From Oscillospiraceae bacterium (GTDB lineage: Bacteria > Bacillota > Clostridia > Oscillospirales > Acutalibacteraceae): a stretch of DNA of 64,000 nucleotides. This document shows, piece after piece, positions 5,674 to 49,907 of this stretch. Numbering within the stretch: the stretch's first letter is position 1; every line of letters starts with the position of its first letter. The position numbers were made by a program, and so were the translations under genes. The notes beneath the pieces are model-generated. The model saw only the letters and a list, made by a program, of their open reading frames with translations, was not told the origin of the DNA and searched no databases. The DNA lies in assembly GCA_015065785.1 (NCBI GenBank), contig SVPR01000007.1, positions 35,634 to 99,633 on the forward strand. Reading direction: 5' to 3'.

Positions 5674-6996
5674 ATGGACGCATATTTCCATTCTGTACGA
5701 CTTGATAAAGACAAATGCAAGGGCTGTACGAACTGCATTAAGCGTTGTCCTACACAAGCAATAAGAGTTCGTGCCGGAAAAGCTCATATTATAAAAGAGC
5801 GTTGCATTGATTGTGGTGAATGTATAAGAGTTTGTCCGCACCACGCAAAATATGCAAGTCGTGACTCATTATCACAAATTGTAAATTATAAATACAGAAT
5901 AGCACTCCCTGCTCCTGCACTTTATGCACAGTTCAACAACTTAGAGGATGCTACCCCTGTTTTAAGGGCTCTTCCCCTTTTAGGCTTTGATTCAGTATTT
6001 GAGGTTGCGGCAGCGGCAGAGCTAATTTCAGAAGCTACAAGAAGAATGATGAAAGAAGGCAAGCTCAAAAAGCCGATTATTTCATCTGCCTGTCCTGCGG
6101 TAGTAAGACTCATTCGTGTGTGCTTCCCTGACTTGCTTGATAATCTTTTGCCGATTAACCCACCGGTAGAAGAGGCTGCAAGACTTGCAAGAGAATATGC
6201 AGTTAAAGAAACGGGCTTAAGACCACAGGAAATCGGTATATTCTTCATCTCTCCTTGTCCTGCTAAAATTACATCGTTCAAGAATCCGTTAGGTATGGCA
6301 AAATCCAATGTTGACGGAGCTGTCAGCATAAACGATATTTACCCTGTTCTTTTAAAAATTATGGAAAAGGCAGATAAATACAACATTCCTAAAGCAGCGC
6401 AAAACTCTGGTATTATTGGTATGAGTTGGGCTGCAAGTGGTGGCGAGGTTTCAGGAAGTCTTAATGAAAATGCACTTTCAGCAGATGGCATTGAAAATTG
6501 TATGAAAATTCTTGAAGAGGTTGAAACCGGCACTCTTGATTCAGTTGATTTCATTGAGCTTAATGCTTGTCAGGGCGGTTGCGTCGGCGGTTGCCTTACT
6601 TCAGAAAACCCCTACATTGCTAAATCAAGACTTAAAAAGCTCAGAAAATATGCCCCCGTTTCTAAAAACAGTTTATCTGTCGAGGGCATACCGGAGCACC
6701 TCTTGAAAGAAAGTCCTATTGAGCCTTGTAACGATGTTATGAAGCTTGCTGACAATGTTACAGAAGCTATGACCAGAATGAAGCGAATGAATGAGCTTTT
6801 AGAAGTTTTCCCAGGGCTTGATTGCGGTACCTGTGGTGCTCCTAGCTGCAGAGCCTTAGCAGAAGATATTGTAAGAGGCTTTGCAAGTGAAGACGACTGC
6901 GTTTTCAGAATGAAGCAGAACCTTGCTCAGCTTCAGAATGGTGAAAATTTTGAAAGTCTTATTCCTGCACCGTTCAGAGAAAATCCGGAAGAGTGA
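5674..6996 (+). CDS. sensory-type [FeFe]-hydrogenase-like protein (HydS-like, no PAS domain)
   Basis: Track ORF starts at TTG 5659. ATG 5674 has a GGAAGG RBS. Contains 2x[4Fe-4S] (CKGCTNCIKRCP, CIDCGECIRVCP), H-domain motifs SSACPAV (6082-6096), ISPCPAK (Cys 6256-6258) and ELNACQGGCVGG, and a C-terminal extra Fe-S motif CGTCGAPSCRALAEDIV. Confidence 0.8.
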   Translation: MDAYFHSVRLDKDKCKGCTNCIKRCPTQAIRVRAGKAHIIKERCIDCGECIRVCPHHAKYASRDSLSQIVNYKYRIALPAPALYAQFNNLEDATPVLRALPLLGFDSVFEVAAAAELISEATRRMMKEGKLKKPIISSACPAVVRLIRVCFPDLLDNLLPINPPVEEAARLAREYAVKETGLRPQEIGIFFISPCPAKITSFKNPLGMAKSNVDGAVSINDIYPVLLKIMEKADKYNIPKAAQNSGIIGMSWAASGGEVSGSLNENALSADGIENCMKILEEVETGTLDSVDFIELNACQGGCVGGCLTSENPYIAKSRLKKLRKYAPVSKNSLSVEGIPEHLLKESPIEPCNDVMKLADNVTEAMTRMKRMNELLEVFPGLDCGTCGAPSCRALAEDIVRGFASEDDCVFRMKQNLAQLQNGENFESLIPAPFRENPEE

Positions 6997-7332: not shown

Positions 7333-8048
7333 TGAAGCTTTATTACGATTTTCACATCCATTCAGGGCTCAGCCCCTGCGGTGATAACGAAATGACACCT
7401 AACAACATTGTCAATATGGCAAAGCTTTACGATTTAGATGTCATCGCTTTAACTGACCATAACTCCACGCTTAATTGCAAAGCGGTTATGGAAGCAGCTG
7501 AAGAAATAGGCTTACTTGTAATTCCGGGAATGGAGCTATGCACATCGGAAGAGGTGCACATAGTTTGTCTGTTCCCCAATTTAGAAAGTGCGACTAAATT
7601 CGGCGATTATATTCGCTCGACACTACCACCTATCAGAAACAAGCCTACTGTTTTTGGTGAACAGCTTGTTTTTGATAAGAATGACAATGTACTTGGATTT
7701 GAACACACCCTTTTAATTACCGCTTCTTCTATCAGTGCTAATGATGCGGTGAGTGTCGTTGCAGATTATGGCGGAATTTGTTTCCCAGCTCACATTGACA
7801 GAAATTCTTATAGTATTTTATCTAATTTAGGTACAATAGATGAATCTTTCAGATTCAATTGTGCAGAAGTTTTTGACACTGAACAAATAGAGCAATTAAA
7901 AATACAACATCCCTACTTAAACAATTTAAGAATTCTTTCAAGCTCAGATGCCCATTATTTGGAGCATTTAAGACTAAAAGAGCATTTTATTGAACCGGCA
8001 GAAAATACAATTGAAGCAATTTTTGAATATTTAAAATCACCTTGTTAA
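7332..8048 (+). CDS. PHP-domain metal-dependent phosphoesterase
   Basis: 238 aa. DFHIHSGLSPCG, ALTDHNS, PAHIDR, SSSDAH motifs. Start overlaps the previous stop (TAATG). Confidence 0.8.
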   Translation: MKLYYDFHIHSGLSPCGDNEMTPNNIVNMAKLYDLDVIALTDHNSTLNCKAVMEAAEEIGLLVIPGMELCTSEEVHIVCLFPNLESATKFGDYIRSTLPPIRNKPTVFGEQLVFDKNDNVLGFEHTLLITASSISANDAVSVVADYGGICFPAHIDRNSYSILSNLGTIDESFRFNCAEVFDTEQIEQLKIQHPYLNNLRILSSSDAHYLEHLRLKEHFIEPAENTIEAIFEYLKSPC

Positions 8049-9640: not shown

Positions 9641-12600
9641 TTATTTGCAGGTTATTCCTTTTGTATCATAATAGCTCATATAACTACCAGAAACTGCTCT
9701 TACTGTGTAAATATATTCAACCTTTTCATCGGCTGTGCTATCGGTATAATTTACATAATCATTACCTTTTACATTTTCAACTATTACCCAAGATGTATCA
9801 GCAGTTTTTCTGTAAATTCTGTATCCGTCCGCTCCCTTTATTTGTTGGTAAGTAATAACATTACCGTCAACCGTTTTAAATGCACTCATAAGCTGTGGAG
9901 TGCTGAGGAATTTCATAGAAGCTGACGCTGTGTAGCTTGAAAGTGAGCTTCCGCTTACAGTGCGGACTGTGTATCTGTAAGTAACGCCTGAAACAACACT
10001 TTTATCTACCCAAGCAGATTTGTTGTTCTTTGCAGTGCCCATAACTTTCCAGGAAGACCATTTTCCTGTTGCTTCGTTATATTCTGAACGATAAACTCTA
10101 TAACCCTTTGATTTTAAAGCCTGTGTCCATTTAACATTAATACCGTTAGCTACATTTGAAATTGTAACCTTAGGCTCTTTTAAATAAAGCACACTATTAG
10201 ATGCTTTATATGAGCTTTTACAGCTTCCGCAAACAGTTCTTACAGTGTAGCGATATGTTGTTCCGCTTTGTGCGCTTTTATCAATCCAGGCAGATTTACC
10301 CGCCGCTGCGGTACCCATTTTTTTCCATGAAGACCACTTTCTGTTAACTGAATCATAAGTAGAACGATAAACGGTGTAACCCGTTGCAGCTTTATTTGTT
10401 GACCATGTAACCTTTACACCCGTAGATGCATTCGCAATTTTTACTGTCGGAGTTGAAAGAATTGCACCTGACCAACCGGTTGTATTATAAGATGAAAGAA
10501 CGCTTCCCTTATAAGCTCTTATTGTATAAGTATATTTGATATTTGCTTTAACGCTTTTATCCATATAAGATGTAGTTTTTACGGTTGCAATTCTTGTCCA
10601 ACTGGTTGCGTTATTTGCTTTTCTGTAAAGCACATAGCCTGTTGCTCCGCTGACTTTATTCCAGCTTACTTTTATAGAATTTGCACTATTGAGTACAGAT
10701 GTCGCAGACGGTGTGCCAGGTGTAAACTGACGCTTCCAACCACTTGAATAATATGTTGATGTAGCACTGCTACCAACAGCCTTTAATGTATAAATATATG
10801 TTGTACCAAGCTTTACATTTTTATCCACAAACAATAAATTGGTAGTTGTTCCGATTCTCGACCAACCGGAATTACCTGTTTTTCTGTAAACATAATACTT
10901 TTCAGCACCATGAACATCTGCCCATTTAATTGTAATACCTTTACCAATCTGCGAATCAAATTTAGTTATTTTTGGTGCAGCTATAAAAGATATTTTATAG
11001 TTTTCATAGGCACTTCTGTAGCCCTCCGCTACCGCTCTGACAGTATAAAGATATGTTTTACCACTTTCAGCCTTTTTATCAGCATAGCTTGTTTTTGTAC
11101 CTGCAACTGTTGCTATTGTTTCCCATGTACCGTTTTCAAGTCTTCTGTAAACGAGATAATTTTCAGCACCTGTTACCTTAGACCATGAAACATTTACACC
11201 GTCAACAGTAATTGCTAATTTAACTGTTTTGACTTTTGATAAAAATACAACCGATTTTACTTCAGATAATGCACTCTCATAAGTACCATCAGTTGAAACC
11301 GACTTAATTGCATACTCATAAGTTACACCACTTGAAACTGCAGTATCTAAATATGTTGTTATATCTGAAGAGGTAGTTTTTAAAACTGACCAATCTGTCT
11401 GACCCTTAACTCTTTTGTAAATTACAAAATCACTTAAATCGTCCGTTATTTCCCAACTGAGAGAAATGCCTGTTGCCGTTAAGGTTGCACCCAATGCTGA
11501 CGGGATATTCACATAAGTTGCACTTTTTGTATTTTCTTCACCTATGTAGCTTTCTGTATTATTTTTAACAGCTGTAACAGTGTAATAATATTTCACACCG
11601 CTTTTAACATTAGTGTCTTTATAGCTCACTTCACTATTTTCAACAGTTGCTATTTTAATCCAGTTACCATCTGTGTGACGATAAATATTATAAGACTCAA
11701 CACCACTTACAGAATTCCACATTACTGTAACAGCATTCACTTCAGGAATTGCATTTGTCACAACAGGTGGCGCTATTCTGTAGAAGCTGTTGGTATATGG
11801 ATTACCGATACTGCCCCAGCCTCTGCTGTCAACTGCAGTTACCGAATATGAGTAGCTTGAGAAGTTCACGACAGAGCTATCAACAAATGAAGTGGTTTTT
11901 ACTTCTGCAATAACCTCTCCACTGCCCGAATCATTCACTATTCTTTTAACAATATAATATTCTGCATTTATTGAAGGCTCCCAGGAAACCTGCATGCCAT
12001 TCATAACATTCTGAACACTTATATTTTTGGGGGATCTGAGGAAATAAACCTCGTAGCCGATTGTACCCATCGGACTTTCTGATTTACCGATTGTTGCGAC
12101 TACGCCATACTCATAGTAACCGCCATCAACTGAAATATCTTTAAATGTTGTCACAGCATTACTTACTGTACCAACATTTTTCCAATCACTTTCGCCTCTT
12201 GCTTTTCTGTAAATTTTATAACCGGTTGCACCTTCTACCTCTTGCCAGTTAACAACAACTGAATCTGCCTGAGCTTCGAGTGAAGTAACCTGTGGTGCTC
12301 CAAGATATGCCAATGTTGCAGTTGTATTAAGGCTACTTACAGTAGAAGCGTTTACTGCTTTAACAGAATAAAAATATGTTGTTCCGTTTAAAACATTTAC
12401 ATCTGAAAAGCTTGTTTGTGTAGTTGTTTCAATCAGTTGCCATTCTTTACTGATATCAGTTTTACGATAAACCTCATATTTATCAGCACCAGTAACTAAA
12501 TTCCAGTTAAGCACAATGCCATTAGCAGTATTTTCAACCGCTGTAAACTCAGGTGCACTTAAAAAACTATGAGAAACATTGTTAGCACCAATTATTGAAA

Positions 12601-16395: not shown

Positions 16396-16443
16396 TTTTC
16401 CTTTCTGAATTGCCATTGTTTTCAAATAAATTCATACATTGTA

Positions 16444-16472
16444 AATATACCATATATATGCCATTTAGTCAA
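16444..16472 (-). promoter_or_regulatory. sigma-A-type promoter of 13708-16395
   Basis: Minus strand: TTGACT (16467-16472), 17-nt spacer, TATATT (16444-16449). Confidence 0.55.
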
Positions 16473-16526
16473 TGAAATTAAATAAAACATAGTGTTAAAA
16501 AAATGTAAATAAAAAGAGGGGCAGGT

Positions 16527-16763
16527 TGGGGCACCCTCCGTAAGGAAGGTGCCCCAGTTATATTCGCCTGACGGCGAGTTATATTGCTTCGCAGTTATAT
16601 GATGCTTATGCATCGTGATATTGCCTTTCGGACAGTTAAAATGCGAATATAATATCACGAAAGCCGATAGGCTTTCATATTACTTTGCTACTAGGCAAAA
16701 TATCACTGTGAGACCTGTCTCACAATATCACTTATTATTCTTGGTTTTTTATATAAAAACCAA
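16527..16763. repeat. array of ~10 dissimilar short hairpins joined by a constant heptamer (GTTATAT x3, GTGATAT, then ATATCAC x3 / ATATTAC)
   Basis: Plus-strand stems: 16527-16556 (12-bp), TCGCC/GGCGA 16564-16577, TGC/GCA 16585-16593, GATGC/GCATC 16601-16614, 16622-16634 (bulged), GAAAGCC/GGCTTTC 16659-16676, TTTGC/GCAAA 16684-16699, TGTGAGA/TCTCACA 16707-16724, TTGGTTTTT/AAAAACCAA 16741-16763. Heptamers at 16557, 16578, 16594, 16615 (forward) and 16652, 16677, 16700, 16725 (inverted). Confidence 0.8.
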
Positions 16764-16812
16764 GGGAGAGCTCTTCTTTACGAAGTGTCTCCTTTACTTT
16801 GCTCCTCAGATA

Positions 16813-17594: not shown

Positions 17595-18818
17595 ATGAAA
17601 CCAATCCGCACATTTTTACAACAAAATGCAATTAAATTGTGGTTAGGAATTGAAAAGCCTGTGTATGAGATTACAAAAGGCAGACATGCAAAAAACAGAT
17701 TTCTTTCTTCTGTTGATTTTCATCATGTAGGTACTAATGTAAAAATTATCAAAGAAACAAACAATGCAACATATATCGCAAAATTCAATGAAGATGGCAC
17801 CATTGATAACAGTGATTTTAAAATTCTCTCTACTACCGATATGCACACAGATGAGGATTATGATTTAAACGACAAAACCTATGATAGATTGTTTAAGCAA
17901 ATTCGTGACAACAAGCCTGATCTTGTAGTATTAACAGGTGACTGCATTCAATCTAAATACCAGCAAATTGATGCGATTCAGTTTGCCCAGATGATGGAAG
18001 AAATCGGTGTTTACTGGGCTTATGTTTTCGGTAATCACGAAGCAAGAGAAGAAAAAGAATACCATAAATATCTTCTTTTTAAAAGTCTTTCAGATTTCCC
18101 ACACTGCCTTTCAAAATTCGGTAATCCCGACCTTTTTGGTTACGGTAATTTCATTATAAATATTATGAATAGTGAAACTGAATTAAAACAATCTTTATTC
18201 TTCTTAGACTCAGGCAGAGATATTGTGGAAGCTCACGCACTTAATGACAATGTTCCAAAAGAAATGTGGAAAGGTTACGACTACATCAAGCCATCACAAA
18301 TCCATTGGTACGAAAATGAACTCAAGTCATTAAGAAGCATTTATGGCGAAGTAAAAAATATGCTTTATATGCATATTCCTATCCCTGAATATAAGTACGC
18401 TTTTAAATTAGATGAAAATGGCGACTATATGAGAAATGAAGACGGCACTCTTAAAAGAGACGAAAAAGACCAACAGCTTATACGAAATGAGAATGCAGAA
18501 ATCATTTATGGCAGAATGTTTGAAGCAGTTGGTTGTTCGCCTTTTAACTCAGGCCTTTTTGAAAGTATGAAAAAGAATAATGCAGTAGCAATTTTCTCAG
18601 GTCACGACCATGTTAATGACTACGCATTTAAATTAGACGGCATTTATCTTGTATATTCTCAATATGCAAGCTACAACGCTTATAATTTAGGTCATTACGA
18701 AAACGATGGACTCATTACTTTACCTGAAAGCGAATGGCAACAGGGTGTTACAATTACGACAGTAAAAAATGATGGTTCAATAGAGCTTAAGCAGATTTTC
18801 AATAGTATATACCTTTAA
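17595..18818 (+). CDS. calcineurin-like metallophosphoesterase
   Basis: 407 aa. TDMHTDED, LTGDCIQ, FGNHE, SGHDHVND motifs. Confidence 0.8.
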   Translation: MKPIRTFLQQNAIKLWLGIEKPVYEITKGRHAKNRFLSSVDFHHVGTNVKIIKETNNATYIAKFNEDGTIDNSDFKILSTTDMHTDEDYDLNDKTYDRLFKQIRDNKPDLVVLTGDCIQSKYQQIDAIQFAQMMEEIGVYWAYVFGNHEAREEKEYHKYLLFKSLSDFPHCLSKFGNPDLFGYGNFIINIMNSETELKQSLFFLDSGRDIVEAHALNDNVPKEMWKGYDYIKPSQIHWYENELKSLRSIYGEVKNMLYMHIPIPEYKYAFKLDENGDYMRNEDGTLKRDEKDQQLIRNENAEIIYGRMFEAVGCSPFNSGLFESMKKNNAVAIFSGHDHVNDYAFKLDGIYLVYSQYASYNAYNLGHYENDGLITLPESEWQQGVTITTVKNDGSIELKQIFNSIYL

Positions 18819-18820
18819 AA

Positions 18821-18866
18821 ATGTGTACCCATCAGTAAAATCAGAGATTTTACTGATGGGTACATT
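18821..18866. terminator. bidirectional intrinsic terminator
   Basis: About 18-bp stem TGTACCCATCAGTAAAA / TTTTACTGATGGGTACA, flanked by A-run and T-run. Confidence 0.8.
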
Positions 18867-19951
18867 TAAAATATTTCTTTCATTAAATTTTCTGTGATTT
18901 CTTCAATTACCGAAAAATCGGTTGCTCTTATATAATAATCCTCTAATCTGTCGTGAATTCCTTTTGCTACCGATATTTTCTTTACTGCCTCCGAAAGCAT
19001 TTCCTGTTGTGTTTTTTTATTGAATTTCAAGCGCTCCTTGATTCCCTTAAGAGCTTCTTTATTTAAAAATCTTGTAGCGTGAACAACCTTTTCATCACCA
19101 AGAAGTGATTTATGAGAAGAATTTTCTGTGAAGAAGCAAAGCTTTAATTCAGGAATTATTATATGTTCTATTTTCGCAGTCGGAAAAATCGGGCAATAGC
19201 AAGCATAAATATCATAGCCATTTTCTAAAGCGTATTCTGCAATATAATCCATAATTGCAGGGGTGCAAACCGAAAAATCGTCTTCAATAGTAATTATTTT
19301 TTCGCTCAATGCCACTATTGTGTCATACTGCAAAACCACACCATCAGGTGTAACTGCACTTAAAAATCTTCTGTTAAGATTACCTCTTTCAGCACCTTTT
19401 CTTGTCGGAATTTCTCTTTTACAAAGTCTTTCAGCATAGTTTCTGACCTTTTCTCTGTCTGTAATTTTATCGCAAAGCTTCATTGCTTCAAGCTGGAGCT
19501 TTGATGTCACTAAGATATATTCTGAAGCTTTTTTATGCAAACGCTTATTTTCATCCGCTAAATTCATAATTGCAGTTTTATATTCATTTAAGTACTTTTT
19601 ATCCCACGCCTCACCAAGATTTATAATACACTCAGTAACACCCGGATAAGTTGCATCAAATGTATGCGGTGCAGTGCCGTCAAGAATTGAAAAATTGATT
19701 TCAGGTGCTATTACAATATCAAGTGAATTCGGGTCAGCACTGCAATAGCCTCTTTCAACGAAATACCCTTTTTTCTCTAATTCAACAGCCAGTTTTTTCA
19801 TCAGTGTGGATTTACCTGTGCCTGGTCCACCTTTTAAAATATAATGCATTCCATCTGCCTTATTATCATAAGCAGAAGAAAAAAGTGAAGTATATTCTTT
19901 TCTTGAATTCGCACCAAAGAAAAATGATACAGGTGTAATTGTTTTAGTCAT
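18866..19951 (-). CDS. uncharacterised P-loop NTPase
   Basis: Walker A GGPGTGKSTLMKK. ATG 19951 (MTKTITP...) follows AAGGAG, whereas the track start at 19978 has no RBS. Walker-B-like SILDGTAPH. Confidence 0.7.
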   Translation of the reverse strand: MTKTITPVSFFFGANSRKEYTSLFSSAYDNKADGMHYILKGGPGTGKSTLMKKLAVELEKKGYFVERGYCSADPNSLDIVIAPEINFSILDGTAPHTFDATYPGVTECIINLGEAWDKKYLNEYKTAIMNLADENKRLHKKASEYILVTSKLQLEAMKLCDKITDREKVRNYAERLCKREIPTRKGAERGNLNRRFLSAVTPDGVVLQYDTIVALSEKIITIEDDFSVCTPAIMDYIAEYALENGYDIYACYCPIFPTAKIEHIIIPELKLCFFTENSSHKSLLGDEKVVHATRFLNKEALKGIKERLKFNKKTQQEMLSEAVKKISVAKGIHDRLEDYYIRATDFSVIEEITENLMKEIF

Positions 19952-20033
19952 AACATCACTCCTTGATTGATAAACCAAAATTTATCACTTACAGAGCATA
20001 CTATGAATTTTTGTGGCTTAATGTTACAAAAAT

Positions 20034-20217
20034 AATGCAGAATGCAGAGTGCAGAATGCAGAGTTTCGGAACTGCGTTGGCAATTATAAAGTGCTGAATG
20101 CTGAGTGCTGAGTGCTGAATTTCGGAATGTGCGTTGGCAATTATAATTCGGAATGCGTAATGCGTAATTCGGAATTGAAGGGTCTGCGACGCAATTATAA
20201 TTAAATAACAAAAGATA
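20034..20217. repeat. heptad blocks A (AATGCAG x4, 20034-20063), B (AGTGCTG x4, 20090-20119) and C (TTCGGAA TGCGTAA TGCGTAA TTCGGAA, 20147-20174) separated by 26-27-nt linkers TTTCGGAA(C/TG)TGCGTTGGCAATTATAA
   Basis: Read directly. Linkers at 20064-20089 and 20120-20146, variant TTGAAGGGTCTGCGACGCAATTATAA at 20175-20200. Palindrome AATTATAATT recurs at 20139 and 20193. Confidence 0.85.
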
Positions 20218-20263
20218 AGTTCTATCATTTAAAGTTTTTCGTAAACTAAAAATGATAGAACTT
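20131..20263. repeat. direct repeat copy 1 (133 bp, identical to 20680-20812)
   Basis: Base-by-base visual comparison shows no mismatch over 133 bp. Similarity extends about 12 bp further left with 1 substitution and 1 indel. Confidence 0.85.
20218..20262 (-). terminator. conserved core hairpin of the composite element, copy 1
   Basis: Minus strand AAGTTCTATCATTTTTAGTTT-acgaa-AAACTTTAAATGATAGAACTT, followed by ATCTTTTGTTATTT. Confidence 0.7.
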
Positions 20264-20285
20264 ATTTATTTTCAGCGAAGCAATA

Positions 20286-20627
20286 CCTTCTTTGAAAAGA
20301 AGGGGGACCATTCTTCATATAAACTATATTCCATAATATTTTTCAAGCGTGTAGCAAAGTTATTTTCAAAATTTAAGTTAAAGCGGAATGGTGGAAAATT
20401 GATATAAAAATACGCTTTAGCGTACGGACACGAGGTTAATATTATTAATACTCCAACCTCATTGCCTTGCACTACCGTGCATTTTAATATCAATTCTCCA
20501 CCAAGCAAGCTTGGTCCCCCTCTTTTTCAAACGAGGTCGGGCTTCGCGTTCGGTTCACGCGTTGCACTCGATTGCTTTGTTAAAATAAAAACTACTCCCA
20601 CTACTGCGGGCGACCACAGGTCTGCCC
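20286..20627 (-). ncRNA. candidate structured RNA, unclassified (multi-stem domain in the unique core)
   Basis: Long-range stems 20297-20310/20512-20524 (13 bp, 1 bulge) and 20389-20405/20487-20503 (17 bp). The second encloses three perfect hairpins (20411-20424, 20432-20460, 20469-20480). Further hairpins at 20501-20514, 20532-20570, 20608-20627. The single non-Watson-Crick pair in the 17-bp stem is G-U only on the minus strand. Confidence 0.4.
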
Positions 20628-20637
20628 CTACCATTTT

Positions 20638-20669
20638 AGAATTAAGAATTAAGTATTAAGAATTAAGAA
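20638..20669. repeat. heptad block D (AGAATTA AGAATTA AGTATTA AGAATTA AGAA)
   Basis: Read directly. Followed by linker copy 20670-20695 and block C copy 20696-20723. Confidence 0.85.
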
Positions 20670-20679
20670 TTTCGGAACT

Positions 20680-20812
20680 GCGTTGGCAATTATAATTCGG
20701 AATGCGTAATGCGTAATTCGGAATTGAAGGGTCTGCGACGCAATTATAATTAAATAACAAAAGATAAGTTCTATCATTTAAAGTTTTTCGTAAACTAAAA
20801 ATGATAGAACTT
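20680..20812. repeat. direct repeat copy 2 (133 bp), offset 549 bp from copy 1
   Basis: Identical to 20131-20263. Confidence 0.85.
20767..20811 (-). terminator. conserved core hairpin of the composite element, copy 2
   Basis: Identical to 20218-20262. First terminator-like structure downstream of the GPH transporter gene (stop at 20927). Confidence 0.7.
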
Positions 20813-20852
20813 GTTGTTTTTATTGACTAATAATTATAATCAAGGCGAAGCC

Positions 20853-20893
20853 TTCCGAAATTCAGCACTCAGCATTCAGCACTCAGCATTACT
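20853..20893. repeat. heptad block B' (inverted copy of block B plus TTTCGGAA)
   Basis: The reverse complement AGTAATGCTGAGTGCTGAATGCTGAGTGCTGAATTTCGGAA aligns with 20089-20127, differing only at three A/G positions. Confidence 0.8.
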
Positions 20894-20926
20894 TTGGCTT
20901 ATCATTCAGCTCTTGAGCGAAGCGAA

Positions 20927-22471
20927 TTATTTTTTCCTTGCTGCAATTTCTGCAACCATCTCTGCCTGGCGTTTTTCTGTGAGCTTGTAGAAGAACATTG
21001 GAACTGCACAAGCGAACATACTGATAACACCTGCACCTACGAGCATATTCCAGAGAGTGTTTGCACCCTCTTGTGAAATGAAGCCTGTTTCAGCGTCGAT
21101 ACCTGCTGCTGCGAATGAAATAACACCGATAAATGCACCAACTGCCATACCGATTTTGTTGATAAGTGTCTGCATAGCAAAGCAAATACCCTCACCGCGT
21201 TCACCTGTTTTCCATTCAAGATAATCAACAGTATCACCAATCATTGCATAAGTAATAATGTTGTTAACACCTTGTGGAATACCGAGAAGAACAAGTGCAA
21301 TAGCACAAATTACTAATTTCCAAGGAGCGTCGTAACCAACGAAATACATAATTCCCATTACAACGCCACCGAAAATGTGAACTGCAACATAAGCCCATTT
21401 CTTTGTGAATTTCTTTGACATCCACGGAACGAGTAATGAAGCAACAAGACCGCCCGGAACAACAAGAAGTGTTATTAAACTATACATACCCTCATTCTGA
21501 AGAACATACTTTGCGAAATAAAGTCCGCCTGTGTATGTATAAACCATTCTCGCACCGCCGAGAATACCTGAAAGAACGATTAAAAGAAGCTCTTTATTTT
21601 TAAAGAGGAGCTTTAAGTTGTGACCAAGGCTTGGTGGGTTATCGTCTGCAGTGAAGCGTTCCTTTGTGTGCTTAAAGCCATAGAAGAACATTGGAACTGC
21701 TACAATAACAAGTACAACTGCACAAATGAAATATGTCATTTTAAGAGTGTCTGCATTTGCGAGCTCCTGACCTTTAATGACTGTACCAACAAAATTCTGA
21801 GCAACATCAGCAGTTACACCTTTATCAAGCATAATTTGTCCAATATCATCAACAGTATATTTATATTTTGAAGTAACAGCATTTGTAATAATAGGAACAA
21901 AAACAGTAACAATACCTGCACCTAATGTGCAAAGAAGACGGGTAATTGTAAGCATATTACCACGAACTACTGTGTCATTGGTCATACAGGTTGAAAGTCC
22001 CCAATAAGGAACATCTGCAACTGTGTAAACAACTGACCAGATAACATAGATAATTGCGATTATAATAAATGATGAGGTTGCTTTTGCCTGGAATGCAGGG
22101 AGGAAGCAAGCTAAAGTCATAATACCGATTGGAATTGCCATCCATTTAAGGTAAGGACGACATTTACCCCATTTAGTTCTTGTTCTGTCAACAATACTAC
22201 CCATAATAGGGTCATTAAATGCGTCAAAAATACGAGTACCGAGCATTAAATAAGCAACAGCCATTGAACCTGCAACAGAGCCTACTGTAACACCATCAGC
22301 ACCAAAAAGAAGCGCATCTGTTAAAAAGATTGTTAAATAGGAACCGATAATTGTACAAATAAAGTTCTGACCGAAGCCTGCTATACCGTAAGCAATGGCT
22401 TCTTTTGGTTGAAGGTTTCCGTCATTTGGTGTAGTGCCGTAAACCTTATGAAGTAAATCATTGATTTTCAT
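20927..22471 (-). CDS. GPH-family MFS sugar symporter
   Basis: 514 aa polytopic. FDAFNDPIMGSIVDRTRTKWGKCRPY signature loop. AAAGGTGA RBS. Confidence 0.8.
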   Translation of the reverse strand: MKINDLLHKVYGTTPNDGNLQPKEAIAYGIAGFGQNFICTIIGSYLTIFLTDALLFGADGVTVGSVAGSMAVAYLMLGTRIFDAFNDPIMGSIVDRTRTKWGKCRPYLKWMAIPIGIMTLACFLPAFQAKATSSFIIIAIIYVIWSVVYTVADVPYWGLSTCMTNDTVVRGNMLTITRLLCTLGAGIVTVFVPIITNAVTSKYKYTVDDIGQIMLDKGVTADVAQNFVGTVIKGQELANADTLKMTYFICAVVLVIVAVPMFFYGFKHTKERFTADDNPPSLGHNLKLLFKNKELLLIVLSGILGGARMVYTYTGGLYFAKYVLQNEGMYSLITLLVVPGGLVASLLVPWMSKKFTKKWAYVAVHIFGGVVMGIMYFVGYDAPWKLVICAIALVLLGIPQGVNNIITYAMIGDTVDYLEWKTGERGEGICFAMQTLINKIGMAVGAFIGVISFAAAGIDAETGFISQEGANTLWNMLVGAGVISMFACAVPMFFYKLTEKRQAEMVAEIAARKK

Positions 22472-25124: not shown

Positions 25125-28100
25125 ATGAAGCGCTCTGTTTCAATTAGAGTTATCTCAATGCTTCTTGCTGTAATGGTTATCTTCGGCACCTTAGGAGTAG
25201 CTACCCTTGCAGCAGACAAAGAGTTCGGGGGAACTTATGGTTATATTGTACCTACCGACTCTAATCTTTCAGCACCAAAAACATCTTACACCTTTTATGG
25301 TAACTCTACCGTTCTTTACTTTATGCTTTTCAGTAATGGTAAAGAAAACTCTTTTTACACGGTAGAAATTTATTCAAGCTCTGACTACAACCCTGACAAT
25401 GTTGTGTCAAGCTTCACTTCCGAATATGGTGATAAGGGCACAGCGCCTCTTGCACTTACCTGGCCATTCAAATCAAACCCAAGTGGTACTTATTACGGAA
25501 GATGCTACACTTCAATTATTGATGGCGAAGACGAAACAATAGATACTTCTACAATTTATGAATTCACTATAAAGCTTAACCGTCTTGGTAAAGAAGAGGT
25601 TGCATTAACAAGCGTTGCAAACGGCAAAGCTGGTGTTGTGCTTAAATGGACAGGATTAAGCACAGCCACAAAATACAGAGTTTACAGAAAACTCAAAGGT
25701 GACACAAGCTGGACTGTTCTTAAAGATGTACCCGCCGGTACCACATCTTACACAGATGCAACCGCAAAAAGTGGTGTTCAATACACATACACAGTTAAGG
25801 CTTTTGATAAGCTTTACTCAAGTCTTTACAATAAAACAGGACTTACAACTATGTTCCTTTCAGCACCAAAGCTCACTCAACCAACAGCAAGTTCAGATAT
25901 TTACCCAGTGATAAAATGGTCACAGGTTGCAGGTTGTCAGGGTTACTACATTTACAGAAAGGGTGGCTCACTCAACGACTCAACCGATTGGAAGAGAATT
26001 GCCACTGTAAAAGGTGCTACAACCTTAAGCTATACAGATAAAACTGCTACAAGTGCTGACTGGCAATACGACTACACTGTGCGTGCATATAATGGCAGCT
26101 ACGGCAGTTCTTATGATGCAGCGGGTGTTAGTTACAATTGTGTTTCTGCTCCTGTTTTAAAATCCGCTTCGAGTGTTAATGGCGGTGTTAAGATTACCTG
26201 GTTAGATACAAACACTGCAACAAAGAAGTTTAACATCTACCGCAAAGCCCCCGGCGAAACATCATGGTCAAAAATAGGCACTTCAACAACCGCTTCTTTC
26301 ACAGATAAAAATGTTACTAATGGCACTACTTACACTTACACCGTAAAAACCGTTTCAAGTACAAATGTAAGCTCATACAACAAAACAGGTATTTCTACTC
26401 TTTACATTGAAACACCTGCGTTGAAAAAAATATCAATTGCAAATAATGGTGATACTACCGTAACCTGGGGCGCAGTTAAGGGTGCAAAAGGCTACTATGT
26501 TTATAAGAGTGTAAACGGCGGAAGCTGGACAAAAATTGCAACCATAAAAAATGCAAGCACTCTTTCTTATAAAGATACTACAGCAAAAAAATCAGGCGAA
26601 ACCTACACCTACACAGTTCGTGCATTTAACGGCTCATACGGAAGTTACTATGTAACAAGTGGTATTTCTGCTATGTACCTTTCTACACCTACTGTAACTG
26701 TAAAAAATGATTACACAGTTGAACAAGGTAGCACCGTAAAGGTTTCATGGAACTCTATCGCAGGTGCAAAGAGCTACAGGGTTTACAGAAAAACCTCCTC
26801 CGATAGCACTTGGACAATAATCGCAGATGATTACACAGATAAAGTTTACTACGATAAAACCGCAGAAAGCGGTGTTAACTATTACTACACTGTAAAAGCT
26901 AAAAATGCTTCTTATATGAGTGGTTACACTTCAAGTGCACTTATCACAGTGCTCGCTGCACCAATCCTTAATGATGCAATTGTAACTGATACTGGCGTTA
27001 AAATTTCATGGAGCGAAGTAGGAGGAGCAACTAGCTACATTGTATTCAGAAGAACACTTACAGGCGCTTGGGAAAACCTCGGCACCTCTTCAACTACAGA
27101 ATATGTTGATATAACAAACAACTCAACTACAACACCTTATATTTACACAGTTCGTGCAGTTTTAGGCGACTTAAAGAGTAACTATATGGTTAACGGCGTT
27201 AAAAACTATATAAATGTAGATACAACAGACATCATTTTTGAAAACAATGTTGAAGCAAATACTGCATTTGTTAACTTAACATGGACTGCCAGCGGTGCTG
27301 ACTCTTACGAAATCTACCGTTCAGACAATGGTTCTGCTCCTGTTCTTTTGGCAACAGTTTCTGCTACAGAGCAACAAAGCTTCATTGATGATGAAATAAT
27401 TCAGGGTACAACTCACATTTATACAGTTAAGCCAATTAAAGAAGGAAAGCTTTCAGTTACTCTCGATTCCGAATCAGTTAAATGGGACTTCCCACCTGTA
27501 CCTGTAATTAAAGTTCTTGCAGTTCCTGCTTATGCTAAGGTTGATTTAGCAGACAGAATTGAAATTTACTGGGAAGGCACAGAGGTTGCCGAAAGCTACG
27601 ATGTATATCGCAGAACTGCTGATTCTGATTGGGTATATTTAACCACAGTAGCAAAAGACAGCGAATACACTTACATTGATACTGACATCGAAACAGATGT
27701 AACTTATTATTACAGTGTTAAAGGTGTGGCTTCTGACCGTGACAGCCTTTTCGACAATGTAGGTACAGAAGCAATGCTCAATGGTCCTGTTGAAGAAATT
27801 CAGGATATGTTCGCTCAGCTTACAGATGACCCAAGTGAAAAAGGTAAAAAACAAGTTACCCTTGCCTGGGCACCAAACGAAAAAGCTTCGCTTTACAAAG
27901 TAATGCGTAAAGCTGGTCCTGATGGTGAATGGGAATTTATGGGACTCTTCCTTAGCTGTGATGTATTAGTATTTACTGATAATACAATTGAGCAAGGCAT
28001 TGAATACACTTACACAATTCACACCTATGCACCAGACAGACCAAGCATTAACAACCTCGTAGGTAAAAAGATTATCTGGACAGACGGTACTGAGGACACA

Positions 28101-28271
28101 ACAACTCCTGAAACTACTGTTCCTGACACAACTATTCCGGATACAACAGTTCCTGAAACCACTGTTCCTGAAGTAACAGTTCCCGACACTACAGTTCCTG
28201 AAACAACACTTCCAACAACAAAACCGGAAGATACAACCTATGATGGTAGCTTAGATATTCCGGATGCTTAA
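25125..28271 (+). CDS. secreted protein with 9 tandem Fn3-like modules and Thr/Pro-rich tail
   Basis: ATG 25125 after AGGAGG. Signal peptide MKRSVSIRVISMLLAVMVIFGTLGVATLAA. About 130-aa unknown N-domain, then 9 modules of the same family as 9641-16395. C-terminal (TTVPE/D)n. Confidence 0.85.
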   Translation: MKRSVSIRVISMLLAVMVIFGTLGVATLAADKEFGGTYGYIVPTDSNLSAPKTSYTFYGNSTVLYFMLFSNGKENSFYTVEIYSSSDYNPDNVVSSFTSEYGDKGTAPLALTWPFKSNPSGTYYGRCYTSIIDGEDETIDTSTIYEFTIKLNRLGKEEVALTSVANGKAGVVLKWTGLSTATKYRVYRKLKGDTSWTVLKDVPAGTTSYTDATAKSGVQYTYTVKAFDKLYSSLYNKTGLTTMFLSAPKLTQPTASSDIYPVIKWSQVAGCQGYYIYRKGGSLNDSTDWKRIATVKGATTLSYTDKTATSADWQYDYTVRAYNGSYGSSYDAAGVSYNCVSAPVLKSASSVNGGVKITWLDTNTATKKFNIYRKAPGETSWSKIGTSTTASFTDKNVTNGTTYTYTVKTVSSTNVSSYNKTGISTLYIETPALKKISIANNGDTTVTWGAVKGAKGYYVYKSVNGGSWTKIATIKNASTLSYKDTTAKKSGETYTYTVRAFNGSYGSYYVTSGISAMYLSTPTVTVKNDYTVEQGSTVKVSWNSIAGAKSYRVYRKTSSDSTWTIIADDYTDKVYYDKTAESGVNYYYTVKAKNASYMSGYTSSALITVLAAPILNDAIVTDTGVKISWSEVGGATSYIVFRRTLTGAWENLGTSSTTEYVDITNNSTTTPYIYTVRAVLGDLKSNYMVNGVKNYINVDTTDIIFENNVEANTAFVNLTWTASGADSYEIYRSDNGSAPVLLATVSATEQQSFIDDEIIQGTTHIYTVKPIKEGKLSVTLDSESVKWDFPPVPVIKVLAVPAYAKVDLADRIEIYWEGTEVAESYDVYRRTADSDWVYLTTVAKDSEYTYIDTDIETDVTYYYSVKGVASDRDSLFDNVGTEAMLNGPVEEIQDMFAQLTDDPSEKGKKQVTLAWAPNEKASLYKVMRKAGPDGEWEFMGLFLSCDVLVFTDNTIEQGIEYTYTIHTYAPDRPSINNLVGKKIIWTDGTEDTTTPETTVPDTTIPDTTVPETTVPEVTVPDTTVPETTLPTTKPEDTTYDGSLDIPDA
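28099..28218 (+). repeat. 15-nt in-frame tandem repeat (about 8 units) encoding T-T-V/I-P-E/D
   Basis: Units read directly: acaacaactcctgaa / actactgttcctgac / acaactattccggat / acaacagttcctgaa ... Confidence 0.8.
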
Positions 28272-36790: not shown

Positions 36791-39700
36791 TTAATTTGCA
36801 TTTGTTGTGCCGGGTTCTGTTGTCGGTTCAGTTGTCGGTGGAGTTGTCGGCTCTGTTGTCGGTGGAGTTGTCGGCTCTGTTGTCGGTGGAGTTGTCGGCT
36901 CAGTTGCTGGTGGAGTCGTCGGCTCTGTTGTTGGTGGGGTTGTCGGCTCTGTTGTTGGTGGGGTTGTTACTTCACCCTTACTGCTTTCAATAACTAAACC
37001 TTCACTTGCAACATAAGCACTTCTGACACTACCGTTTACTGTGCGGACTGTATAGCGATAAGTAACATCCTCTTTTACGCTTTTGTCAATCCAGGCAGAT
37101 TTTGTTTCTTTCGCTGTTCCCATAACTGTCCATGATGACCACTTGCCATCTTTGCCTAAAGTAGCTCTGTAAACTGTATAACCTTTTGATCCGGCAGCTT
37201 TAGTCCAGGAAACCTTTATTCCTGTCTGGACAGCTTCAAGAGAAACTGTCGGTGTAGCAAGATATAAGAGCTCACTACTTGCAGTATAAAGACTTCTGCT
37301 TTCACCATTCACTGCACGAACAGTATATTTATACTTAACATTGCTTACAGCCTTTTCATCTACATAAGATGTAGTTGTTACTGATTTTAATGTAGTCCAG
37401 CCTGACCACTTGCCAGATTTATATTCAGCACGATATACCGTGTATTTTGTTGCACCGCTGATCTTATTCCAGCTTACATTTACACCTTTAGCTGCATTTG
37501 CAATTTTCACAGTAGGAATACTGAGGAATACATTTGTATTAGAAGCAACATAGCTACTCTTATATTTACCGCTTATTGCTCTGACTGTATATCTATAGGT
37601 GCCACCGGATTTAACTGTTTTATCAGTAAATGTTTTTGCAGTTGCTTTTGCAGTACCAAGATTCACCCATTTTGACCACTTGCCATCTTTCAATTCAGAA
37701 CGATAAATTGTGTAACCTTGTGCACCATCAACTTGATTCCAGCTACCAGAAATTCCATTTGCAGCATTGGTTACCTTTAAAGTAGGTTGTGCAAGATAAA
37801 TAAGAGTATTTGAAGCCTTATAGGTACTTCTTACAGAACCACTTACTGCACGAAGAGTATATCTGTATTGGCTACCTGATTTAACTGTTTTATCAGTAAA
37901 TGACTTTGCAGTAGCCTTAGTAGTGCCAAGGTTTAACCAGCTTGACCACTTACCATTCTTATATTCAGAACGGTAAATTGTGTAGCCTGTTGCACCATCA
38001 ATAGCATTCCATGTACCTGTAATGCCTGCTGCAGCATTTGAAATTGTCAAGGTTGGCTGTTCAAGAAAAATCATTCCTGCAGAAGCAGTATATCCACTTC
38101 TTTCCTTGCCAACAACTGCACGAATTGTATATCTGTATGTTCCACCACATTTTGTTTTATCATCTAACCATGAATTCTTTGCAGACTCAGTAGTGCCAAG
38201 AATAATCCAGCTTGACCACTTACCATCCTTTAATTCAGCTCGATAAACAGTGTAACTGTCAGCATTCGCTATTTTGTTCCACTTGATTAAAAGTCCTGTT
38301 GTAGAAATTGTCAAAGTAACCTTTGGTGACTCAATAAATGTTAAGCCAGCACTTTCTTTATAAGAACTTCTGAAATCACCGTTTACTGCACGAACTGTAT
38401 ATCTATATTTAACACCGGTTTTTGTAGTTTTATCTACCCAGGAAGATGCAGTTTCTTTTGCTGTGCCACGAACTTTCCAAGCAGACCATTTTTTTGTTTT
38501 AGTGTTATATTCAGAAGAATAAACTGTGTAACCTTTAGCATCTTCGTCCTTAGTCCAGCTCACTTTAATGCCGTTTGAAGCATTTTCGATTGTAACCTTT
38601 GGTGTATCAAGTGTGAGCTTTTCAATAATTGCCTTTTCGAGCTCCGCTTTACATACAGTACATTCTTTATGTTGTGAGCCTGTTTCTGTAAATGTTGCTT
38701 TCTTATCTGTAATCCACTCACTCTTTGTATGACCTGTTGCCTTTAATACTTCACCTGTTTCAATTGTTTTCTTACAATCAGAACAATATAAATCACCTGA
38801 ATAGCCCTCTTCTGTACAAGTCGGGGCTTTAGCGTTTACTGTTTCAGTGTTTTTGTGATTATCAGCGTCAATCGGAACTACAGTAACCTCTGTTTTTCCA
38901 ACACAATCAGGATTTACACACGGCTTATATTCAGAGCCCTCTGCAATACATGTTGCTTCGTCAATTGTAAATTCGGTAGCCCATGTGTGAGTTTTACCGT
39001 CCGGTTGAACCTCTTCAGTTTCTTTGTAATCGCAATCACCGTTCTGACAGAACTTTGCAATTTCACCTTTTACAGTACACTTTACTGGAACTGTAATTTC
39101 CCAACCGCCTAAATTATGAGAAACACCGTCCGCTTTAATTACTTCTGTTACTGAATGTGTGCAACCATCATTAAGACATTTTTGTACTTTTTCGCCATCG
39201 GTAACACAAGTTGCAGGAGTTACAATTTCCCAATCAGCGCTCATATTGTGGGCATCCTTGTCAATAGGAAGCACTTCTTCTACTTTGTAGTCACAGCCGT
39301 TCAAGCAAGTTGCAACTTTTTTACCCTCTGCAACACAGGTAGCAGGAATAACACTCCATCCACCTAAATTATGCGCATTTTCATCAACAGGAATTGAATC
39401 TGTTTGTGTCTGACCGCAACCATTTGCACATTCTTTAGTTTTTACGCCCTCTGCATTACAAGTCGCAGGAGTTGTTACAACCCAATCATTGGACCAGTCG
39501 TGAGTTTTACCATCTGCTTTAAGAGTATCAGTTACCTTGTATTCGCAACCATTATTCTGGCAATATCTTACCAAAACACCATCTTTTATGCAGTTTTGTG
39601 CTTCTAAAACCTCAAAACCGCCTAATGTATGAGCATTTTCGTCAATTTCAGTTTCTCTTGTAATCACTTCTTCACAAAGAGTACATTCACCTGATTCTAC

Positions 39701-41905: not shown

Positions 41906-42025
41906 AGTGGTCAGTGGTCAGTTATTAAGTATAAAAGTTCTGCCATTCTTAGTTTACAAAAAACTAAAAATGACAGAACAAACTATTTTTATATCCAGCG
42001 ACTGACCACTGACTTACTGACCACT
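41906..42025 (-). repeat. complete composite element: arm (GTGGTCA heptads) / core hairpin / inverted arm
   Basis: Arms 41906-41923 (AGTGGTCAGTGGTCAGTT) and 42001-42025 (ACTGACCACTGACTTACTGACCACT) are complementary apart from one extra unit. The right arm overlaps the argF stop codon (42024-42026). Confidence 0.8.
41937..41979 (-). terminator. conserved core hairpin, copy 3; terminator of the arg operon
   Basis: Minus strand GTTCTGTCATTTTTAGTTT-tttgt-AAACTAAGAATGGCAGAAC followed by TTTTATAC. The two non-Watson-Crick positions are G-U on the minus strand and C-A on the plus strand. Confidence 0.75.
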
Positions 42026-48674: not shown

Positions 48675-49907
48675 TTATTTATCTAAACCGTTTTTCTCTT
48701 TCATTTTTGCCATAACCTTGATTGGAAGACCGTAAAGGTTAATAAAGCCTGCTGAATCCTTCTGGTCATAAACCTCATCTTCATCAAATGTAGCAATTTC
48801 AGGGTCATAAAGTGAGAATGGAGATTTAACACCTGCATTAATCATATTACCCTTGTAGAGCTTGAGTGTAACATCACCTGTTACTGTTTGCTGTGTGCTC
48901 TTAACGAAAGCTAAAATTGCTTCTGTAAGTGGTGTGAACCATTGTGCATTGTAAACGAGCTCTGCTAATTTTTGAGCAACGAGTGCTTTGTAGTGAGCTG
49001 TTTCTTTATCAAGACAGATTGTTTCAAGAACCTCGTGTGCTTTGTAAAGAATTGCACCACCCGGTGTTTCATATACGCCACGGCATTTCATACCAACAAG
49101 TCTGTTTTCAACAATGTCAAGAAGACCGATACCGTTTGCACCGCCGAGCTCGTTGAGTTTTTCAACAATCTCAACTGCACCCATCTCTTTACCATCAATA
49201 GCTGTTGGAACACCTTTTTCAAAGTGGATTGTTACATAAGTTGGTTTGTCTGGTGCCATTTCCGGTGAAACGCCCATTTCAAGGAAGCCCTCTTTATTAT
49301 AAAGTGGCTCATTCATTGGGTCTTCAAGGTCAAGACCCTCGTGTGAAAGGTGCCAGATATTTTTATCTTTAGAATAGTTTGTTTCTCTGCTGATTTTAAG
49401 AGGAACATTGTGTGCTTCTGCATATTCGATTTCTTCTTCACGGGATTTGATATCCCATTCTCTCCAAGGAGCGATAATCGGCATATCCGGTGCGAATGCT
49501 TTAATAGCAAGTTCAAAACGAACCTGGTCATTACCCTTACCTGTGCAACCGTGACAAATTGCGTCTGCGCCTTCGGCTAAAGCAATCTCTGCAACTCTTT
49601 TACCGATTGACGGACGAGCAAAGGCTGTACCTAAAAGATATTCTTCATATTTTGCACCTGCCTGAACACAAGGGAAAACATAATCTTCAATAAATTCTTT
49701 TGTAAGGTCTTCAACATAAAGCTTTGAAGCACCTGTTTTAAGAGCCTTTTCTTCAAGACCTTCTAATTCACTTGCCTGACCAACATTACCTGAAACTGCA
49801 ATAACCTCGCAGTTGTTGTAATTTTCTTTAAGCCAGGGAATGATAATTGAAGTATCAAGTCCGCCGGAATACGCTAAAACTACCTTTTTAATGTTTTTCT
49901 TATCCAT
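48675..49907 (-). CDS. argG: argininosuccinate synthase
   Basis: [10 protein letters not shown]-loop-like motif. ATG 49907 follows GGAGGT. Confidence 0.93.

Follow-up and report, generated by a model that had tools for sequence, protein, structure and literature searches.

A gene-free island of heptad arrays and hairpins in an Oscillospiraceae genome, probably a cluster of lineage-specific mosaic repeats

Background

Between the start of a nucleoside triphosphatase (NTPase) gene and the stop codon of a transporter gene (positions 19951 and 20927), a 64,000-nt stretch of the genome of an Oscillospiraceae bacterium of the family Acutalibacteraceae (assembly GCA_015065785.1, contig SVPR01000007.1, positions 35,634 to 99,633; hereafter the window, whose own numbering is used throughout) contains a gene-free interval that is occupied over 20034-20890 by short tandem arrays of seven-nucleotide motifs, linkers and hairpins. 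The transporter belongs to the MFS_2/GPH type, and the product of the other gene is a weak STAND/AAA-type NTPase, adjoining a metallophosphoesterase (Pfam). The question raised by this locus, which we call the island, is whether so much ordered structure in non-coding DNA marks a locus with a dedicated function, or whether it is an assemblage of modules that also occur elsewhere.

We conclude that the island is probably not a dedicated locus but a nested cluster of mosaic repeats, which are non-coding, specific to this lineage and similar to bacterial interspersed mosaic elements (BIMEs), repetitive extragenic palindromic (REP) sequences and miniature inverted-repeat transposable elements (MITEs). 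Its linker, taken as an exact 26-mer, was found at 35 loci in about 20 metagenome-assembled genomes (MAGs) named Acutalibacteraceae, Oscillospiraceae or Clostridia bacterium, always within the same grammar, in a scan that covered one genome per species; a composite of ~300 nt recurs at at least four unrelated loci of a single MAG, and three strain variants of the island, with 99-100% identity between their transporters, do not contain the same units. These repeats constitute a hitherto undescribed family of interspersed mosaic palindromic repeats in uncultured rumen and gut Clostridia, which is unusual in having arms of about four heptads, in each of which four positions are fixed and three are free, linkers that form C-GNA-G mini-hairpins, and a strict polarity. 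No account of such repeats was found in the literature searched, in which a query with GCGAAGC returned a review of DNA mini-hairpins (PMC13037366).

Results

Layout of the island

The arrangement of blocks, linkers, two hairpins and a terminal block B' proposed in an initial annotation of the window was borne out by exact coordinates, Tandem Repeats Finder (TRF), and inverted and direct repeats (I and D numbers below). Its components are the following, where L numbers denote related loci and contigs compared with the window.

19952-20033, minus strand: ordinary 5' region of the NTPase gene, outside the repeats; partly conserved with the orthologous spacer of L071, where the heptad content differs
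20034-20061, plus strand: heptad block A (AATGCAG x4), sense; 4.1 copies by TRF
20062-20089, plus strand: linker unit 1, with mini-hairpin AAC-TGC-GTT at 20070-20078 (AAC-GCA-GTT on the minus strand)
20090-20117, plus strand: heptad block B (AGTGCTG/AATGCTG x4), left rod arm, pairing with B' (inverted repeat I4)
20118-20146, plus strand: linker unit 2, a degenerate copy with TG in place of C inside the mini-hairpin
20147-20176, plus strand: heptad block C (AATTCGG/AATGCGT), copy 1, within the 143-nt direct repeat D1
20177-20202, plus strand: variant linker, copy 1, with mini-hairpin GTC-TGC-GAC at 20182-20190
20210-20270, no strand: AT-rich central hairpin 1 of the GTTCTATCATTT...AAATGATAGAAC family, T-rich on both flanks (inverted repeat I6)
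20275-20547, no strand: the "core", which belongs to a second repeat family as one of its short members (inverted repeats I5 and I2)
20548-20637, no strand: third module
20638-20671, plus strand: heptad block D (AGAATTA x4.9 by TRF); the L001 strain variant diverges here
20668-20695, plus strand: linker unit 1, second copy, with its mini-hairpin at 20676-20684
20696-20751, plus strand: block C, copy 2 (20696-20725), and variant linker, copy 2 (20726-20751), within D1
20759-20819, no strand: AT-rich central hairpin 2, the probable terminator of the transporter operon, read on the minus strand
20831-20860, plus strand: antisense-oriented linker TAATTATAAT-CAAG-GCGAAGC-CTTCCGAAA, with mini-hairpin GGCGAAGCC at 20844-20852
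20861-20890, plus strand: heptad block B', reverse complement of B, right rod arm

Each heptad block holds 3.9-4.9 copies according to TRF. The direct repeat D1 (20130-20272 and 20679-20821, 143 nt, 98% identical) accounts for the repetition of block C, the variant linker and the hairpin, while B and B' form an inverted repeat of 36 nt with 94% complementarity. Blocks A and B differ at a single heptad position (A versus T), and do so in all four units. The segment between the duplicated parts had been given as 416 bp; it spans 20273-20637 and is 365 nt long. The palindrome AATTATAATT, which was said to recur five times, has four exact occurrences and a fifth copy that matches at 9 of its 10 positions; GCAATTATAA occurs five times, and GCGAAGC is present at 20275, 20845 and 20917. 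Hairpin 1 has a predicted folding energy of -23 to -24 kcal/mol and a z-score of about -6.7 on either strand, and near-identical copies of it are found at many loci; hairpin 2 (predicted -21.6 kcal/mol, z of -6.5) is followed by AUCUUUUGUUAUUU.

The palindromic design of the units accounts for the reading of TATAAT on both strands. TATAAT was also considered as a promoter and rejected, as the scan gave no -35 partner and the elements avoid divergent spacers. A candidate promoter of the NTPase gene, TTGTAA-18-CATAGT, together with a Shine-Dalgarno site, may lie at about 19990-20030, outside the repeats.

Chance, coding content and assembly

The window holds seven blocks of period 7, six of them in the island, and none arose in 200 first-order Markov simulations; for the periods from 4 to 12 other than 7, the island contains no block. 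The claims that the interval has no credible open reading frame (ORF) and that the flanking genes are those named above agree with Pfam and ARAGORN: in Pfam, none of the seven short ORFs of the island rose above noise (all matches at E = 0.04 or worse), and no tRNA or tmRNA was reported by ARAGORN.

Many contigs from other assemblies terminate inside the island, which might be taken as a sign of misassembly and is expected of repeats. The entire island is covered at 100% identity by the contig L040, and for each of its internal junctions there is a match at 99.9-100% identity among contigs of other samples, namely L043 (covering 18103-20890), L041, L003 and L004; an assembly artefact is unlikely. 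The 56-nt period of linker plus block also resembles the array of clustered regularly interspaced short palindromic repeats (CRISPR). However, the would-be spacers are low-complexity heptads common to several loci, the would-be repeats vary in their hairpin, and the proteins scanned beside the island showed no cas-family match. A replication or partition site would be a third explanation of this sort, but the island has no DnaA boxes, there is no skew switch at 20 kb, and blastn of the island against plasmids and phages returned no match. We regard this whole group of explanations as extremely unlikely.

The grammar of the units

When read on the strand opposite to that of the initial annotation, all linker types reduce to one form. 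The basic unit is oriented and ~56 nt long, and consists of TATAAT, 2-5 nt, a mini-hairpin, CCGAAA or CCTTAA, and about four heptads. In this form the common linker is TTATAATTGCC-AAC GCA GTT-CCGAAA, the variant linker TATAATTGC-GTC GCA GAC-CCTTCAA, and the right-hand linker of the island TATAATCAAG-GC GAA GC-CTTCCGAAA, with the mini-hairpin sequences AACGCAGTT, GTCGCAGAC and GGCGAAGCC. The mini-hairpin has a stem of 3-6 bp, a C-G closing pair and a 3-nt G-N-A loop, and the C-GNA-G pattern is held by 67 of the 101 units that were anchored by their flanks alone.

Covariation was tested on 14 of the 18 distinct 17-nt contexts taken from these 67 units. The closing C-G pair, the loop G and the loop A are invariant across the contexts tested, while the two stem pairs beside the closing pair each occur as four standard pair types and the outermost pair as two. 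The stem cells are paired in 82% of cases versus 54% in shuffles, and the covariation score of 0.665, versus 0.143, was reached by none of 500 shuffles, with slid controls at or below 0.17. The heptads, when read on the strand opposite to that of the unit, follow a frame, A-R-T-K-N-N-N, which fits 84% of 129 blocks versus 30% of random heptads of the same composition; some 30 different N-N-N triplets are found among the blocks, most of which are 24-35 nt long and which cluster at about four units.

Units combine into elements of the form n sense units, central hairpin, m antisense units, in which one to three units stand on each side of a 60-nt AT-rich hairpin with TATAAT directed inward and the heptads outward. 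The polarity is strict, as the central hairpin is on the TATAAT side in all 30 units that have a hairpin within 260 nt. Moreover, in a rotation-free test of arm complementarity, 16 of 86 blocks had an inverted partner no more than 900 nt away whose heptad was identical (control 2.9 +/- 1.6, maximum 8), and 33 had one when at least six of the seven heptad positions had to agree (control 9.2 +/- 2.7). The outer blocks tend to be reverse complements of each other, so that elements can fold as rods, in single-stranded DNA or in RNA. In the predicted fold of the island, B is paired with B' around everything else, with a z of -13.

Dispersal of the elements and their position at gene 3' ends

Goat, sheep, yak and water deer are among the sources of the MAGs that bear the linker, and several element sites are found per 8-kb locus; in a scan of viral contigs, the linker had 0 matches. 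Although ORFs make up 86% of the sequence, 118 of the 129 heptad blocks lie outside long ORFs, and among the 40 clusters for which both neighbouring genes are known, 17 are in convergent, 19 in tandem and 4 in divergent spacers. Many elements start 0-10 nt past a stop codon, and the order from the upstream gene is stop codon, sense heptads, linker, hairpin. The elements thus occupy mostly the 3' ends of genes. In the island, block B', on the minus strand, is the first sense block past the stop codon of the transporter gene.

Two further elements are found in the window itself:

41906-42025, no strand: simple element of AGTGGTC heptads, hairpin and reverse-complement heptads, abutting the stop codon of argF (ornithine carbamoyltransferase)
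63866-64000, plus strand: element of TCAGGAA heptads, GGGCTTCGC and hairpin, which begins directly behind a stop codon and is truncated where the window ends; a copy with 77% similarity lies in L001 at 10998-11102

Together with a multi-hairpin region at 16426-16812 (see below), they contradict the description of the other intergenic regions of the window as simple spacers. The initial annotation had likewise held the island to be exceptional in its ordered non-coding structure. The order and the non-coding nature stand; the island is not, however, a single purpose-built structure, nor is it exceptional for this genome, as its modules recur in the window and in about 20 MAGs.

Position and grammar also bear on a different explanation, in which the arrays are binding platforms: a multimeric protein would read the four constant heptad bases in a 7-nt register and control 3'-end formation or mRNA stability, with the mini-hairpin and the AT-rich box positioning the protein either on the RNA of the 3' untranslated region (as HutP does) or on DNA (as omega does). 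The A-R-T-K frame in 84% of the blocks with its three varying positions, the clustering at about four units, the strict polarity towards the hairpin, the start of sense blocks within a few bases of stop codons, and the invariance of the 41.9-kb element in nine samples are all in favour of such a platform. Yet all seven positions, and not just four, are homogeneous within a block, which four-position binding does not need and which slippage explains; the number of units varies between orthologues down to one; orthologous genes manage without an element; the blocks on the two sides are complementary and would be double-stranded in read-through RNA; and no candidate protein was identified. On balance, we consider binding platforms an unlikely explanation.

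Turnover at the same site in relatives

The operon of TetR, hypothetical protein, cyclophilin and MFS transporter is conserved, and the sequence past the transporter stop codon varies. The orthologous sites compared, with the identity of the transporter, are as follows.

L072, transporter 92%: plain GC-rich terminator only
L073, transporter 90%: plain GC-rich terminator only
L074 and L075, transporter 89%: terminator and one partial unit
L076, transporter 86%: terminator and a different module
L071, transporter 93%, likewise next to the NTPase gene: a single simple element with heptads of another type, in a spacer of 208 nt
L070, transporter 99%: shares B', linker and hairpin, behind which stand three antisense units in tandem and a different downstream gene
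L001, transporter 100%: leaves the order of the window exactly at block D, and has neither the core nor copy 2 of the 143-nt repeat

All breakpoints between the orthologous sites fall at module borders, and the repeat content changes rapidly from strain to strain. Two adjacent units of L070 are nearly identical, and the number of heptad units differs between orthologues (1 versus 4, 3 versus 4). The initial annotation had taken a complete lack of conservation of the arrangement in related genomes, together with an absence of transcription, as evidence that would count against it; the arrangement is indeed largely not conserved, and this applies to the arrangement only, as the modules recur.

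The genes downstream of the transporter differ as well, being the NTPase and metallophosphoesterase in the window (17595-19951), three small unannotated proteins in L001 (7900-8939), and a 1400-aa protein in L070 (5417 onwards). The repeat island lies at the border of a variable accessory region. These neighbours were also considered as a defence system and rejected, the NTPase giving only a weak mad8-like match. A comparable variation was seen at another locus in the near-identical L034, L031 and L010, in which the interval from the terminator of a T-box-like leader to the start of alaS holds no element in one locus, a small heptad element in another and a large composite in the third; in the two filled loci the elements lie between the regulatory terminator and the gene under its control.

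The core and the third module

The core is a nested palindrome of 273 nt with G-rich ends, in which the outer arms 20275-20315 and 20507-20547 pair, and an inner stem GGTGG...CCACC (20389-20405 with 20487-20503) encloses three small hairpins. Its fold has a z of -7 to -8 on both strands, both strands folding equally well because the core is a palindrome. It had been called unique; its ends and modules, on the contrary, have relatives at other loci. In an end of this family, GCGAAGC is separated by a few bases from a hairpin, which is followed by GGGGGACC, by either a small hairpin or a spacer of 80 nt, and finally by GGTGG; the sequence of the end hairpin varies among the copies with compensating changes. 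Homologous ends, paired or solo, occur in L008, L010, L016, L018, L019, L022 and L026; they form inverted pairs around interiors of ~480-570 nt in L016, L018 and L026, are nested in each other in L018, and stand solo in L010. In L026 (1-242 and 1790-2360), a full-length element of ~570 nt with such G-rich ends follows a 23S rRNA gene, ~1.5 kb past its 3' end, with extra copies of the central part of this element at 5935-6088 and 7385-7523 of the locus. A scan of metagenome contigs for a 22-mer of the core gave 0 matches in a collection without the samples of the Joint Genome Institute (JGI), whose contigs carry this 22-mer, and a scan with a motif of the long core copies gave chance matches only, in high-GC coding DNA.

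The third module opens on the minus strand with GTAGGGGC and a palindrome (a GTAG-palindrome); on this strand it reads GTAGGGGCAGACCTGTGGTCGCCC (20608-20631) and then a small terminator-like hairpin, the terminator-like site being 20610-20597. Its relatives include a 77% match on both strands in L021 and an exact 25-mer in L011.

It is conceivable that the core is a structured small RNA gene set between two terminators, the surrounding repeats being incidental. Its strong nested fold on both strands, the compensated variation of the terminal hairpins of related copies and the terminator-like hairpins on both flanks would fit such a gene. Nevertheless, Rfam was without a match: searched over 19000-22000 with E up to 1, it gave only two chance-level matches, and across the whole window and 23 related loci no family covered the island or the cores, longer core copies included. 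ROOL, GOLLD, OLE and 6S had no Rfam match at the island, and Gut-1 had one only at 16555-16626. Further against a small RNA gene, the scan showed no promoter-like site adjoining the core, a palindrome folds alike on both strands, related copies range from 273 to about 570 nt with greatly differing interiors, nested copies and solo ends exist, and the core is missing at the same site in L001 and L070. A small RNA gene is therefore very unlikely.

How the island may have arisen and how it may end the operon

In the preferred interpretation of the island as a cluster of mosaic repeats, part of it would have accreted through partial duplication and the arrival of the core and the third module. The difference between blocks A and B in all four units, together with the near-identical adjacent units of L070, points to duplication of units followed by homogenisation within each block. 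The island may thus have grown by tandem duplication of units with slippage subsequently homogenising each heptad block, by insertion of the G-rich-ended core and the GTAG-palindrome module, and by recombination between dispersed copies at the conserved linkers. The last process would lead to a strain-variable junction beside accessory genes, and would explain both the strain variants and the changed downstream genes.

The AT-rich central hairpins have predicted energies of -22 to -25 kcal/mol, AT-rich stems of ~20 bp, and U-rich but interrupted tails; the plain terminator of L072, in the same orthologous spacer, has -26 kcal/mol. Most likely, hairpin 2, the one nearest to the transporter, would replace the plain terminator of the orthologues and end the operon. 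A consensus terminator scan did not list the central hairpins.

C-GNA-G hairpins, GCGAAGC in particular, are extraordinarily stable DNA mini-hairpins, and d(GCGAAGC)/GCGNAGC hairpins occur at single-strand replication origins (PMC13037366). The G-N-A loops thus favour DNA as the relevant folded form, to judge by their sequence, and the mini-hairpins would point to a spreading step through folded single-stranded DNA. This leads to another explanation, that the units are a non-autonomous mobile family and substrates of a single-stranded-DNA nickase or transposase of the HUH type, such as a REP-associated tyrosine transposase (RAYT) or the TnpA of IS200/IS605, in which the G-N-A mini-hairpin would be the recognition hairpin, and the AT-rich box or CCGAAA the cleavage or target site. 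In its support, the C-GNA-G stems covary, hairpins of this sequence combine extraordinary stability with occurrence at single-strand origins (PMC13037366), copies are dispersed within one genome, their presence differs between near-identical genomes, and the neighbouring module starts with GTAG and a palindrome in the manner of REPs. Conversely, a search limited to the nine proteins around the island (9.6-24.8 kb) found no Pfam match to a transposase family; no target-site duplication or defined end was found in the dispersed copies, which fade, when aligned, within heptad arms of variable length; and the arms differ between copies, which is unusual for the ends bound by a transposase. Such a mobile family seems improbable to us.

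A broader form of these ideas, in which elements and a protein make up one system, has a somewhat better though still small chance. Here a factor would read the G-N-A mini-hairpin, the AT-rich box and the 7-nt array, acting either as an HUH-type nickase that spreads the units or as a multimeric binder that sets mRNA 3' ends. Such a unit-reading factor would explain the strict polarity, the A-R-T-K frame and the blocks of about four units.

Some observations weigh against our interpretation of the island as a cluster of mosaic repeats, or against parts of it. If the repeats were purely neutral or selfish, three of their features would be left unexplained, all of which suggest that some factor recognises the units: the A-R-T-K frame, the fixed G and A in the loop, and the strict polarity. 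The element beside argF is identical in nine contigs from nine samples, so that some copies are stable and could be under selection. With regard to strict mobility, neither a target-site duplication nor a clean empty site nor an autonomous partner gene was found among the copies compared. The counts of G-U pairs in the sense and antisense folds, 146 versus 132, do not differ, and RNA and DNA forms are hence not distinguishable by G-U asymmetry. Finally, that hairpin 2 is probably the terminator of the transporter operon is a prediction from sequence and fold.

Discussion

New families of bacterial repeats are not rare, and the present one shares features with several known systems. Like the BIMEs and REPs of enterobacteria, it consists of high-copy extragenic palindromic units and conserved linkers, which form mosaics at gene 3' ends near stop codons, can fold into hairpins, vary between strains and are sites of rearrangement. 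However, there is no sequence similarity, the host is Gram-positive, and no RAYT gene is known for these units. Furthermore, a REP is an imperfect palindrome of 20-40 nt headed by GTAG, whereas the heptad unit has no GTAG and is an array of about four heptads with a mini-hairpin of 3-nt loop; the only GTAG-headed module of the island, at 20608-20631 on the minus strand, is separate from the heptad units.

Similarly to MITEs and foldback elements, the elements are non-coding and dispersed, have inverted arms around a centre, and include internally deleted and nested copies; no ORF was seen inside any copy. The terminal inverted repeats of MITEs have a counterpart here in the 94% complementarity of B and B' and in the enrichment of inverted partners in cis (16 versus 2.9), and the FB foldback elements of Drosophila have arms of short tandem repeats, as found here. 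The differences are that no target-site duplication, defined ends or related transposase were found, and that the arms differ from copy to copy. The BOX elements of Streptococcus pneumoniae (boxA-boxB(n)-boxC) are also modular repeats found between the genes of Firmicutes, with strong predicted folding and an internal module whose number varies, but their modules are of other size and sequence, and they have neither heptad arrays nor a G-N-A mini-hairpin.

Heptad registers as such have been met in Firmicutes. Omega, a ribbon-helix-helix protein of plasmid pSM19035, reads heptad arrays at plasmid promoters and partition sites, and HutP reads (NAG-N4)3, i.e. NAG triplets 7 nt apart, at an antiterminator site in a 5' leader. 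The likeness to the present arrays would lie in the 7-nt register; the motifs are others, and the arrays described here number at least dozens in each genome and are located at gene 3' ends. The mini-hairpins, in turn, have the C-G closing pair and the G-N-A loop (GAA, GCA, GTA) of the d(GCGAAGC)/GCGNAGC hairpins studied by Hirao and co-workers (PMC13037366). The natural examples known of the latter are in the origins of single-strand phages and in promoters, and they are not known from a chromosomal repeat family; the likeness is one of sequence.

If our interpretation is correct, abundant uncultured Clostridia of rumen and gut carry dense, fast-evolving structured repeats with a simple grammar. 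This would matter for assembly and binning, as contigs break and synteny ends at the elements, for annotating the 3' ends and terminators of such genomes, and for the reading of "RNA motifs" derived from metagenomes, as Gut-1, to which neither a host nor a role had been assigned, sits here in a similar palindromic repeat. The family would also be a natural experiment on how homogenisation of tandem repeats and hairpin constraints together shape non-coding DNA, in which three of the heptad positions drift from one block to the next, the other four are fixed, and the arms continue to match each other. A dedicated protein, should there be one, would make this a new kind of repeat-protein system.

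Other features of the window

The region 16426-16812 is a palindromic comb of small variable hairpins between constant heptamers, GTTATAT in the left half and ATATCAC in the right half. It contains a match to Gut-1 RNA (RF01706) at 16555-16626 on the plus strand (53.6 bits, above the gathering score) and a weaker inverted copy at 16647-16733 on the minus strand (31.4 bits). Descriptions of Gut-1 have been confined to human-gut metagenomes, and no host is known for it (PMC2864571); in the present window, which belongs to a Ruminococcaceae/Acutalibacteraceae MAG, it looks like part of a repeat element. The comb resembles the island in its palindromic arrangement of small hairpins and constant heptamers, but has constant heptamers and variable hairpins where the island has variable heptads and a constant hairpin-linker, and Gut-1 has no match in the island.

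In-frame tandem repeats at 28094-28213, 36813-36968 and 37604-38256 (of 15/45, 12/24 and 270 nt, respectively) belong to very large, surface-protein-like ORFs and are unrelated to the heptads. Lastly, the GC skew changes sign near 52-56 kb, the gene orientation flips near 50 kb, and 9-mers resembling DnaA boxes occur at 49950, 49992 and 50342 in a 405-nt spacer; the part of the window at about 49900-56000 may be a replication origin region.

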